A DNA stretch of 64,000 nt. Source: Klebsiella phage vB_KpnM_Tauntaun_ER47. The notes under the pieces were generated by a model. The model was not told the origin of the DNA and searched no databases. It worked only from the letters and a program-made list of their open reading frames with translations. Shown here one piece after another: positions 9,757-10,431 of the stretch; the first letter of the stretch is position 1; every line of letters begins with the position of its first letter. The stretch is taken from the sequence record PP738783.1; one strand, 5' to 3'. The translations under genes and the position numbers were made by a program.

Positions 9757-9804
9757 GTTTCGTTTCGATGTAAGTACTATATCAAAGATGGTTATTCTAT
9801 GCAA
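9757..9804 (-). promoter_or_regulatory. sigma70-type promoter (TTGCAT-N17-TATAGT) plus conserved ATCGAAACGAAAC leader
   Basis: read on the minus strand: TTGCAT agaataaccatctttga TATAGT actta CATCGAAACGAAAC. Confidence 0.55.
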
Positions 9805-10021
9805 GGCTTTTTTCGTTATCCATCAAATATTTTAAGTGTTCTTTTAATGCAGGGAGTTCGTTCAAATGGCGTTGCTTAACTTTCTCGTACTCTTTGCGTT
9901 CCCAGTTTTCAAGATTGCTTGCCAACGCTTCATCACAATAAGCGATCCCGCGTTCTGCATCCTGAACTTTCTGTTTCCATTGTGCAACTGCTTGTTGATA
10001 AAGAGAACCGTTAACCATCAT
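9797..10021 (-). CDS. hypothetical protein
   Basis: 74 aa; upstream hairpin GGGGTA..TACCCC containing TATAGT, then CATCGAAAC, GGAG, ATG. Confidence 0.5.
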   Translation of the reverse strand: MMVNGSLYQQAVAQWKQKVQDAERGIAYCDEALASNLENWERKEYEKVKQRHLNELPALKEHLKYLMDNEKSLA

Positions 10022-10094
10022 AATAATTTCCTCCCTTGTTTCGATGGGGTAACTATACCAAAGCTACCCCAGAATGTTTTAACAAAAAGTGCTA

Positions 10095-10358
10095 TTAGTA
10101 GGTATCCAGTTTATACATTTTGCACCAGTTCATGAATTCTTCGAAAGTCTGAGTATTAACACGTTTTTCCTTCTTCACTTTCTTAGTGATTACAGGACGG
10201 TTAGTAAAACGTTTTTGCATTTTCACAGTGATTGCTACTTTATCGCCCAGGTCTTCTACCTTTTCAACCAGCGCCCACTGAGAACCGATTTCAGCACCGA
10301 AAGTCAAACCAACAATCTCACCTGCTTTAACGTGTGCTGCATATTTTACTTTAACCAT
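10095..10358 (-). CDS. hypothetical protein; start trimmed to MVKVK
   Basis: the annotated N-terminal 22 codons overlap the promoter/terminator element; the internal ATG has GGAA RBS and the conserved leader. Confidence 0.5.
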   Translation of the reverse strand: MVKVKYAAHVKAGEIVGLTFGAEIGSQWALVEKVEDLGDKVAITVKMQKRFTNRPVITKKVKKEKRVNTQTFEEFMNWCKMYKLDTY

Positions 10359-10376
10359 TTTCGTATTCCTTTCTCT

Positions 10377-10431
10377 GTTTCGTTTCGATGAATACAAGAT
10401 ACCAAAAAGCCTCCCGCAATGCAAGAGGCTT
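10377..10431 (-). promoter_or_regulatory. composite terminator hairpin with embedded promoter (TTGCAT in loop, TATCTT -10) plus ATCGAAACGAAAC leader
   Basis: minus strand: AAAGAAGCCTC TTGCAT TGCGGGAGGCTTTTTGG TATCTT gtatt CATCGAAACGAAAC. Confidence 0.55.

Follow-up and report, generated by a model that had tools for sequence, protein, structure and literature searches.

Probable promoter-early stem-loop cassettes with a conserved transcript leader in a T4-like Klebsiella phage

Here we report that elements repeated across the genome of a T4-like Klebsiella phage are probably (we estimate a probability of about 0.72) PeSL-type (promoter-early stem-loop) cassettes of T4-like phage with a conserved leader. 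The cassettes carry a conserved transcript start, AUCGAAACGAAAC, that is common to unrelated T1-like phages. Promoter/terminator cassettes of this kind have already been published (Arbiol 2010; Comeau 2014), and both the promoter-in-terminator design and the shuffling of small genes are known, and in that respect ordinary, in T4-type phages; the exact role of the leader is what we infer here. The cassettes have in addition a third conserved module, namely a predicted transcript start held at a constant distance from the -10 hexamer, where recombination junctions fall. The position of this leader indicates where to cut and paste when therapy-relevant Klebsiella phages are engineered or compared.

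The window, by which we mean the whole stretch of DNA analysed, is the first 64 kb of the phage, a Slopekvirus (Straboviridae) with 99.8% identity to vB_KpnM_M1. Genome-wide counts are based on a composite genome consisting of the window and the remainder of vB_KpnM_M1. The 17 leader copies of the composite genome were picked by the motif itself, making their conservation partly circular; a set of T1-like cassettes was picked by an upstream box alone and is unbiased with respect to the leader. All coordinates given by a first-pass annotation of this DNA were confirmed on their strands. Cassettes with the leader (17) and without it (at least four) cluster at 9.7-11.2 kb, 56.9-57.9 kb, and 66-100 kb, and their downstream ORFs are small (59-189 aa) and without known function. 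The sites considered in the window are listed below.

9757..9810, minus strand: cassette before a 109-aa ORF (DUF7717); degraded hairpin, only the AAAAAGCC half; -35 TTGCAT 9804-9799, 17-nt spacer, -10 TATAGT 9781-9776; predicted +1 A 9769; leader ATCGAAACGAAAC 9769-9757; ATG 9737.
10038..10096, minus strand: T1-type cassette before a 74-aa ORF; box aaTAGCACTTTTTGTTAAAAC 10096-10076; hairpin GGGGTA (10070-10065)/TACCCC (10051-10046) enclosing the extended -10 TGgTATAGT (hexamer 10057-10052); predicted +1 A 10045; leader ATCGAAAC 10045-10038, directly abutting the SD GGGAGG.
10377..10451, minus strand: hybrid cassette before an 87-aa ORF; TAGCAT box 10451-10431; terminator-like stem 10434-10404 containing the -35 TTGCAT 10424-10419; -10 TATCTT 10401-10396 after TGG; predicted +1 A 10389; leader 10389-10377.
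56864..56918, plus strand: hairpin-promoter before a 189-aa ORF; terminator-like stem 56864-56891 with the -35 TTGACT 56871-56876 inside; -10 TATATT 56894-56899; predicted +1 A 56906; leader variant ATCGAAACGTAAA 56906-56918.
57505..57581, plus strand: hybrid cassette before a 90-aa ORF; TAGCAC box from 57507; terminator-like stem 57525-57549 containing the -35 TTGCAA 57532-57537; -10 TATAGT 57556-57561; leader 57568-57580.
57875..57922, plus strand: cassette before a 59-aa ORF; -35-like TTGTGT 57875-57880; hairpin GGGTAATG (57884-57891)/CATTACC (57900-57906) overlapping the extended -10 TGgTACATT (hexamer 57898-57903); predicted +1 A 57910; leader ATCGAAACGAAAG 57910-57922, abutting the SD.
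25644..25679, minus strand: hairpin-promoter without the leader; stem 25679-25652; -35 TTGCAC 25672-25667; -10 TATATT 25649-25644; transcript start predicted near ACACCATTGAGAGGG.
11147..11183, minus strand: hairpin-promoter without the leader, new relative to the first-pass annotation; -35 TTGACT 11176-11171; -10 TATATT 11152-11147.
About 3997..4033, minus strand: hairpin-promoter without the leader, likewise new; AAAGCCTC-TTGCAA-tgcaGGGGGCTTTTT; -10 TATATT 4002-3997.
36926..36978, plus strand: promoter-like site; TTGACC, 17 nt, TAAAGT 36949-36954; terminator-like hairpin 36955-36978 beginning right after the -10.

Sigma70-like -35 and -10 hexamers with 17-18 nt spacers and a TG before the -10 are found at the listed sites, oriented toward the downstream gene. 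The placement of a -35 inside a hairpin with the -10 following it, as first proposed from inspection of the sequence, was borne out by terminator-like structures at 10434-10404(-), 56864-56891(+), 57525-57549(+), and 25679-25652(-). These four hairpins have 11-14 pairs each followed by a T-rich tail, and enclose TTGCAT, TTGACT, TTGCAA, or TTGCAC located 17-18 nt upstream of TATCTT, TATATT, or TATAGT; the stem at 11183-11156(-) is also called terminator-like (11-14 pairs and a T tail). The proposal that a single element both terminates the upstream transcript and initiates the downstream one therefore stands with respect to its architecture, a terminator-type hairpin combined with a sigma70 promoter, from which the two activities are predicted. 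This is the arrangement already published for PeSLs, one subclass of which has its stem-loop over the -35.

A T tail is missing from the hairpins that surround the -10 (10070-10046 and 57884-57906), and neither is a predicted terminator; it is for this reason that the 57884-57906 hairpin was not called as one. The arms of hairpins around the -10 nevertheless covary: among 15 distinct 3' arms, the own partner pairs at 5.6 of 6 positions compared to 4.31 for the partners of other copies (within-copy versus between-copy permutation, p<1e-4). This permutation was chosen over RNAalifold or pair counting because the hairpin register differs between copies. The strong covariation in the absence of a T tail argues that structure around the -10 is selected, but not as a classic terminator.

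A genome-wide motif search had been suggested for the leader, and the motif is indeed commoner than expected. With at most one mismatch allowed, ATCGAAACGAAAC has 4 matches in the window versus 0.23 expected, a number reached by 0/100 shuffles; three are exact (9757-9769(-), 10377-10389(-), and 57568-57580(+)) and one has a single mismatch (57910-57922(+)). At two or fewer mismatches significance is lost (7 matches versus 3.3 expected), and the two-mismatch matches at 27575 and 51546 are probably due to chance. Two weaker copies are genuine members of the family judged by their context: ATCGAAACGTAAA at 56906 and the 8-mer ATCGAAACaagggagg at 10038-10045 both occupy intergenic gaps, on the coding strand, 6 nt past a -10 hexamer and with an SD and ATG downstream. 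Leader copies adjoining a -10 thus number six in the window and 17 in the composite genome. The further claim that all early mRNAs would start with the leader was too broad, given that only 6 of approximately 20 promoter-like sites in the window carry it, and that among hairpin-promoters genome-wide it is present in 7/11 and absent from 4/11. The occurrence of ACGAAACG in the hairpin at 36955 was confirmed, but AACGAAAC lies there at predicted +5..+12, one nt off the consensus register; the site may be a diverged leader member rather than a chance match, and would then fall in the PeSL subclass whose stem-loop follows the -10. An exact scan of IMG/VR for ATCGAAACGAAACA returned at least 119 single scattered matches, no surprise for a 14-mer in so large a collection, and was thus uninformative; a literature search by sequence strings returned nothing relevant.

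The register of the leader relative to the promoter is fixed. In 15/17 copies its leading A, the predicted +1, falls 7 nt past the -10 hexamer (6 nt between TGnTAnnnT and the A), the copies at 88900 and 92594 being 1-2 nt off register; the assignment of this A as +1 is based on spacing rules and on analogy with T7. A literature search found no study of transcription start sites for Drexlerviridae and no promoter analysis among the Slopekvirus papers listed. The extended -10 is well conserved (T-15 in 17/17, G-14 in 15/17, and T-12, A-11, and T-7 in 16/17 each), the discriminator separating it from +1 varies, and G4, A5, A6, and A7 of the leader are invariant in 17/17, figures that apply to copies selected by the motif. 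The leader reads as a tandem repeat, CGAAA-CGAAA-C, whose place on the predicted transcript does not change, and its subfamilies extend past the 13-mer (...Agacaaaaggaaca, ...Agagaaaggaa, ...Acactttaggaga), with several leaders terminating in GGAG and many having GGAA instead. Its distance to the ATG is variable (19-33 nt), while that to the -10 is constant. The predicted 5' UTRs of 19-33 nt are 50% A, with minimum free energies of 0 to -2.9 kcal/mol and a mean z of +0.71 versus shuffles, and the leader is accordingly predicted to be unstructured.

It is important to note that in the unbiased T1-like set the leader is conserved at only 0.3-0.7 bit per position, which indicates that the exact 13-mer is dispensable for promoter function. 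Its strictness in the present phage may thus reflect recent spread or gene conversion rather than selection.

The T1-like phages (TLS, T1, Rtp, and Rogue1) contain a 21-nt intergenic direct repeat, aaATAGCACnnnTTGnTAAAA, located about 76 nt before the start codon in TLS (PMC11447400). [quoted passage not shown] From box start to ATG the distance is 76 nt at 10096, and 92-94 nt at 10451 and 57505, where it is accounted for by an inserted terminator hairpin carrying the -35. The likeness to the T1-type elements covers whole cassettes, which are 77-87% identical over 60-100 nt (60-70 nt for the 10038..10096 cassette). In T1, Stevie, and the present phage, the box is fixed 37 nt upstream of the extended -10 in 20/27 copies, with the A-rich leader next; two window copies differ in that the terminator hairpin with its -35 sits between box and -10, placing the box ~12 nt farther upstream. 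The 2024 study considers the 21-nt box alone and poses its function as an open question (PMC11447400), to which the fixed 37-nt spacing offers a directly testable answer.

The same cassette, its 21-nt ATAGCACnnnTTGnTAAAA box included, recurs in Drexlerviridae, Krischvirus, and Pseudotevenvirus and was absent from 5,426 E. coli genomes. Its individual carriers are T1, Stevie, a Veterinaerplatzvirus, a Krischvirus, and RB43, together with 196 records from the RB43 group. In Rfam, only tRNA reaches the gathering score in the window, with no match at E<=1 in 9300-11300. That T1-like siphoviruses and RB49-like phages share it suggests that regulatory DNA may pass from one phage family to another without the genes it serves. 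A joint transfer of cassette and downstream gene was rejected, with 0/6 downstream ORFs having a homologue in T1, Stevie, the Veterinaerplatzvirus, or the Skers loci.

Of the functions initially suggested for the motif, the shuffling of small-gene cassettes at a recombination hotspot has the best support, as breakpoints coincide with the leader. Homology between the window and PMBT1 breaks off at the last leader base, the alignment ending at 57581; in PMBT1, two cassettes that carry the leader are separated by three additional genes, and the same leader and SD precede a different gene. The cassette at 10388 combines parts of two Miller cassettes, with the junction of this chimera falling after the -10 and before the leader (10390-10395): window positions 10395-10482 match the Miller denV cassette, and 10366-10390 match the leader of another Miller cassette. 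Orthologues in RB43 and Slopekvirus have the -10, leader, and gene in common and unrelated upstream halves (RB43 13487 versus Slopekvirus 93790). A comparison of RB43 with Slopekvirus did not sustain the idea that the cassette is more conserved than the flanking gene, both lying within one 87%-identical segment.

Each cassette occupies the space separating two small accessory genes, and its anatomy resolves into five modules. The first is an A/T-rich upstream box, in some copies the T1-phage box ATAGCACnnnTTGnTAAAA, and the second a GC hairpin that, where a T run follows, would stop transcription arriving from upstream. The third is a predicted promoter for host sigma70 whose -10 is of the extended type and whose -35 or -10 sits inside the hairpin; because the RNA of this promoter would begin past the 3' arm of the hairpin, it would not itself be terminated. 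The fourth is the conserved predicted transcript start A(+1)UCGAAACGAAAC, followed by the SD and ATG as the fifth. The leader would then serve as both initial transcribed sequence and 5' UTR, a purine-rich, A-rich, unstructured stretch of 19-33 nt, and we infer that it provides a single well-defined A start, lets the polymerase escape the promoter efficiently, and keeps the ribosome-binding region open. Being identical in many cassettes, it would also be the homology patch for recombination, through which upstream halves, leaders, and downstream genes would be reassorted within and between phage genomes.

An unlikely, though not negligible, alternative is that the leader has no function of its own and is simply the uniform part of a recently amplified repeat, kept alike by gene conversion or recombination (concerted evolution). 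The breakpoints at the leader, the subfamilies running past the 13-mer, the weak conservation in the unbiased T1-like set, and the 4/11 hairpin-promoters that presumably function without a leader are all consistent with this. However, gene conversion would also homogenise the 6-nt discriminator, yet the discriminator varies while +2..+8 does not; moreover, the same consensus (A-rich, AT start, U-poor) recurs in unrelated phage families and in T7 promoters A1 and A3, and the leaders are less structured than shuffled controls. We give similarly little weight to a reading according to which box, hairpin, and leader form a portable early-expression cassette moving horizontally between unrelated families of virulent enterobacterial phages (Drexlerviridae siphoviruses and Straboviridae myoviruses), with the leader, 5'-AUCGAAAC(G)AAAC, acting as a specific cis signal read by a common host component (e.g. 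while transcription begins, or on the 5' end of the RNA). If true, the leader would be more than an A-rich spacer, and the T1-type 21-nt repeats would be the upstream module of extended -10 promoters that lack a -35.

Less probable still is that the leader is a binding site, either a DNA operator or an RNA 5' tag, for a trans-acting factor co-regulating early ORFans, such as a repressor ending early transcription, a translational repressor, or a host RNA-binding protein or RNase. Four invariant bases beside a variable discriminator, conservation of the motif across phage families, and a tandem repeat at a fixed transcript position are what such a site could look like, but the invariance comes from motif-selected copies and fades in the unbiased set. 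The motif furthermore has no dyad symmetry, its 5-nt period is ill-suited to known DNA-binding dimers, and it has no Rfam match. There is no evident regulator common to the phages that share it, and the one candidate tested, the HTH regulator of T1 and Stevie, is without a homologue here; the presence of the same leader in T1-like siphoviruses likewise speaks against a phage-specific regulator.

Two named candidates for such a factor were not upheld. A RegA-like operator disagrees with the variable motif-to-AUG distance, which argues against start-codon occlusion, and with the constant distance to the -10, as RegA sites overlap or abut the initiation codon; a regA homologue is present in PMBT1 at 25676-26038. 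For a MotA/AsiA-like switch, the T4 middle promoter provides the reference: a Mot box, (a/t)(a/t)(a/t)TGCTTtA, centred at -30 replaces the -35, and the phage encodes MotA and AsiA. The conserved motif here is at +1, a -35 of sigma70 type is present in several copies, aligning the copies brings out no evident Mot box, and neither motA nor asiA is named in the annotations inspected. In RB43, which belongs to a related genus and carries these cassettes too, neither MotA nor middle promoters can be recognised.

We regard as comparably improbable a role of the hairpin and A-rich leader as an RNA processing module on read-through RNA, in which an endonuclease (RNase E or G, or a phage RegB-like enzyme) would cleave the single-stranded leader and leave a new 3' end shielded by the hairpin, yielding stable single-gene units from polycistronic early RNA. 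The covarying hairpins without a T tail would fit such a role, as would a single-stranded, A-rich leader and the GGAG at the end of several leaders, GGAG being a known T4 RegB target. Many leaders, however, have GGAA and not GGAG, the T-tailed class is fully accounted for as terminators, and processing leaves the fixed -10 register unexplained.

Several other readings were rejected: sigma54 recognition of TAGCAC...TTG (spacing of 3 nt rather than 5, and AG rather than GG in the box), an IHF site within the leader (TTR element absent), Hfq (ARN)n or CsrA motifs (register inconsistent, second GGA absent), a sigma-dependent pause element (TCGAAA is without A2 and T6 of the -10), and mimicry of the CRISPR-repeat 5' handle AUUGAAAC, judged a coincidence, as this is the handle of some type I/III systems and enterobacterial I-E and I-F handles differ.

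With respect to known systems, strong early promoters of coliphages, whose first transcribed bases resemble one another, offer a parallel for the leader. The mapped T7 promoters A1 (ATCGAGAGGG) and A3 (ATGAAACGACAG, also given as GGTACgatGTACCacATGAAACGACAG), which are early promoters for the host RNA polymerase, start like the leader with +1 one nt farther from the -10, a resemblance of 5-9 nt that could be due to chance; A3 also has an inverted repeat around the -10, as in the present hairpins. T5 early promoters reportedly have a conserved transcribed downstream region. The initial transcribed sequence is known to alter promoter strength more than 10-fold, with purine-rich sequences correlating with productive yield and TG or TA near +5/+6 slowing escape.

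The closest relatives by design are the PeSLs. In the published descriptions we consulted, the stem-loop lies between or overlapping the -35 and -10, or upstream or downstream of both, and PeSLs of RB49/phi1 were shown to have promoter and terminator activity, with crossovers traced to the stretch from the -10 to the SD/ATG (Arbiol et al. 2010, PMC2839356; Comeau et al. 2014, PMC4122927). The PeSLs of RB49/phi1, PST/T4, and nt-1/KVP40 resemble the present cassettes in their A/T-rich upstream region, their sigma70-like -35 and -10 hexamers, and a GC stem-loop that overlaps or flanks the promoter and serves as a terminator (here a predicted one), as well as in clustering in hyperplastic regions before ORFans and in having indel or replacement junctions between the -10 and SD/ATG. 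Sigma70-like promoters, GC stem-loops, hyperplastic ORFan regions, and cassette junctions are all found in the present phage. PeSLs are further characterised by mini-circles, excision products that arise when neighbouring cassettes recombine; for the present cassettes, promoter and terminator activity are predicted from sequence. Two differences set the present cassettes apart: the portions of the published text that we consulted report no conserved initial transcribed sequence, whereas a 13-nt leader is present here in 17 copies, and the box, the hairpin around the -10, and the leader are homologous to elements of T1-like siphoviruses.

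The 2.5-kb stretch around the finding shares 99.8% identity with vB_KpnM_M1 and 99.7% with PMBT1 (Slopekvirus, Straboviridae). The window opens with rIIB/rIIA, continues with early and replication genes and reaches as far as the baseplate. A tRNA gene at 49956-50029(+) (Rfam RF00005, 53 bits; tRNA-Met in the PMBT1 annotation) closes the nucleotide-metabolism cluster. Genome-wide counts were made on a composite of the window and M1 64001-176329, with ~0.9 kb of a baseplate gene absent at the join.

The conserved predicted transcript start ATCGAAACGAAAC (the leader; core ATCGAAAC) occurs in the window as three exact copies and one with a single mismatch, against 0.23 expected, and four copies were reached in 0 of 100 shuffles; the first-pass observation holds, and its departure from chance is strong. 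All coordinates in the first-pass annotation were correct when rechecked. Allowing two mismatches gave seven matches against 3.3 expected, which is chance level, and the matches at 27575 and 51546 were discarded as leader copies on that ground; the match at 56906 and an 8-mer at 10038 were accepted on context. The leader is present at 6 of ~20 promoter-like sites counted in the window, all six preceding small ORFs of unknown function, and, genome-wide, in 7 of 11 hairpin-promoters of the AAAGCCC...GGGCTTT type. Subfamilies are distinguished by their continuation (...Agagaaaggaa, ...Agacaaaaggaaca or ...Acactttaggaga). Three strong promoter-like sites (-35 TTGACC/TTGACT/TTGACG; -10 TAATAT/TATAGT/TATTCT) have a second leader family, CGTAGACAAGAnAC, starting 6 nt past the -10, so that conserved transcript starts occur in more than one family:

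Window ~18880-18850, minus strand: CGTAGACAAGAnAC leader
Window 52306-52335, plus strand: CGTAGACAAGAnAC leader
Composite genome 150373, plus strand: CGTAGACAAGAnAC leader

Occurrences of the motif core were printed with their flanks, and the 17 copies adjoining a -10 were aligned. In 15 of these the A of ATCGAAAC falls at position 7 counted from the end of the -10 hexamer, the copies at 88900 and 92594 being off by 1-2 nt, and the six intervening bases are freely variable. Positions that played no part in choosing the set are also conserved: T-15 in 17/17, G-14 in 15/17, and T-12, A-11 and T-7 each in 16/17. Since the distance from motif to ATG varies (19-33 nt) while that from the -10 is constant, the motif keeps its position relative to the promoter and predicted start site rather than to the ribosome-binding site.

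Four GC hairpins scored as terminator-like in a consensus scan, and each surrounds a TTGNNN located 17-18 nt upstream of a TANNNT. Two hairpin-promoters without the leader were additional to those first annotated:

~4033-3997, minus strand: hairpin-promoter without leader
11183-11147, minus strand: hairpin-promoter without leader

Promoter-early stem-loops (PeSLs) were reported from RB49/phi1 and subsequently from PST/T4 and nt-1/KVP40 (PMC2839356; PMC4122927), and comprise an A/T-rich region, a sigma70-like promoter, a stem-loop between, overlapping, before or after the -35 and -10, and an SD and ATG at the 3' end; reporters demonstrated both promoter and terminator activity. Every defining feature that can be assessed in silico is present in the window cassettes, and the composite elements are, as judged from sequence, PeSLs. 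At several promoter-like sites a terminator-type hairpin starts directly after the -10, as in those PeSLs whose stem-loop follows the -10, and the site's own transcript would begin inside or just ahead of the hairpin, which could also stabilise the 5' end or serve in attenuation:

36955-36978, plus strand: hairpin directly after -10
~38735-38760, plus strand: hairpin directly after -10
~27660-27635, minus strand: hairpin directly after -10
~9405-9380, minus strand: hairpin directly after -10

Recombination between PeSLs reportedly excises and inserts ORFan cassettes, with crossovers located downstream of the -10 and upstream of the SD/ATG (PMC2839356; PMC4122927). Alignment of the window with PMBT1 gave five collinear blocks, one of which stops at window 57581, the first base past the 13-mer; PMBT1 has the same cassette through ATTGAAACGAAACA, after which its SD differs and three additional genes follow. 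In a second PMBT1 cassette, beyond these genes, the leader and SD (ATCGAAACGAAACAgacaaaaggaacatc) match those of the window and the downstream gene differs. Window 10395-10482 (upstream box, terminator, -35 and -10) matches the cassette before denV in Citrobacter phage Miller, while 10366-10390 (leader) matches the cassette before another Miller gene; at the 10.4-kb cassette Miller has denV and two ORFs, versus one 87-aa ORF in the window. RB43 (13487) and Slopekvirus (93790) have the -10, leader and gene in common, with unrelated upstream halves. Judging by these breaks, crossover points fall at the leader, in agreement with the PeSL model. Two further differences from PMBT1 have no cassettes at their borders: 36165-36740 and 53730-54242, in that order a replaced segment (PMBT1 has a homing endonuclease gene) and a ~0.5 kb insertion in the window.

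A sensitive search with window 9000-11500 returned, besides T4-like relatives, >250 records of T1-like siphoviruses, with matches confined to two intergenic cassettes (77-87% identity over 60-100 nt). The parts of window copy 10096-10038 stand in the same order as in Stevie (aaaTAGCACTTTTTGTTAAAACtcgattGGGGTAgtttggcataatTACCCCATCGAAACGAAACgaggaaaacacaATG) and T1 (TAGCACTTTTTGTTAAAACcggatcGGGGTAtcttgctatagtTACCCCATCAAAACGAGATAcc...). The upstream box of three window cassettes corresponds to a 21-nt direct repeat, aaATAGCACnnnTTGnTAAAA, known from TLS, T1, Rtp and Rogue1, whose function was listed as a question without an answer by the authors of its description (PMC11447400, 2024):

10096-10076, minus strand: T1-type box
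10451-10431, minus strand: T1-type box
57505-57525, plus strand: T1-type box

In T1 and Stevie the box was the sole criterion for collecting copies genome-wide. Of these 27 copies, 20 have a -10 located 37 nt downstream of the box, TG nearly always precedes the -10, and no -35 was found at the canonical position; an A-rich start follows (consensus ATCGAAA(C/A)GAAACA), at only 0.3-0.7 bit per position. This fixed spacing to an extended -10 without a canonical -35 suggests that the box is the promoter's upstream module, and its TAGCA-N5-TGCTA dyad, centred near -42, would suit an UP-like element or activator site. No homologue of the T1-type HTH regulator was found in the window phage's genome, and the T1-like genomes compared encode no homologue of any of the six downstream ORFs; regulatory DNA alone is common to both.

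In 19 cassettes (T1, Stevie, the window phage and T7 A3) a segment upstream of the -10 pairs with the six bases 3' of it. Across 15 distinct 3' arms, pairing with the own partner averaged 5.6/6, compared with 4.31 when partners were taken from different copies (permutation p<1e-4); G-14 never varies in this set. Selection therefore acts on structure, not sequence, which argues against a sequence-specific operator at this hairpin. These hairpins have no T tail and gave a negative terminator prediction; in read-through RNA they could serve attenuation, processing or 3'-end protection, and a processing module is a possible reading.

The leader is predicted to be unstructured, has 9/13 purines and lacks TG and TA; position -1 is a pyrimidine and +1 an A. 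Predicted 5' UTRs contain 50% A and 13% U and show almost no folding (0 to -2.9 kcal/mol; the mean z versus shuffles is +0.71). The initial transcribed sequence can alter promoter strength >10-fold, productive yield correlates with its purine content, and escape is slowed by TG or TA near +5/+6 and favoured by GA or GG. The most probable reading is therefore that the leader serves the cassette as initial transcribed sequence and 5' UTR. Selection on it would be loose and would favour a well-defined start, ready promoter escape and an accessible ribosome-binding site, and cassette spread and recombination would maintain its near-identity within the group of the window phage. The experimentally mapped T7 early promoters A1 (+1 ATCGAGAGGG) and A3 (+1 ATGAAACGACAG), starting at positions 149 and 401 of T7 segment 350-1000, and the GGTAC...GTACC surrounding the A3 -10, resemble the cassettes over short lengths that may be chance. 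Binding of the leader by a specific trans-acting factor is weakened by poor conservation in unbiased copies, the lack of a dyad in the motif, the varying distance to AUG, and the lack of an evident regulator common to phages with the motif. Pure hitch-hiking is likewise weakened, as the discriminator varies beside an invariant +4..+7 and unrelated phages have the same A-rich, AT-starting consensus. The RegA-like translational control and MotA/AsiA-like switch initially proposed lack the defining features, the former given the 19-33 nt distance range.

Hairpin-plus-leader cassettes number 5-13 per genome in most of 196 records searched (Slopekvirus, Pseudotevenvirus and related Cronobacter, Enterobacter and Citrobacter phages), with no match in 5,426 complete E. 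coli genomes and no matching Rfam family. Single cassettes with TAGCAC box, hairpin and ATCGAAAC leader occur in Veterinaerplatzvirus (~4100-4010(-)), of another Drexlerviridae subfamily, and in Krischvirus Skers (~4060-3990(-)), which is like RB49, the group in which PeSLs were defined (PMC2839356). The terminator and promoter in one element, and the recombination hotspot, which the first-pass annotation had proposed, were right in core and already published as PeSL. Neither a conserved-leader module nor homology between PeSLs and T1-like repeats was found in the searchable literature; what these cassettes add to the published PeSL is a third module, the conserved leader, which doubles as a crossover patch, together with homology to the unexplained T1-like repeats.
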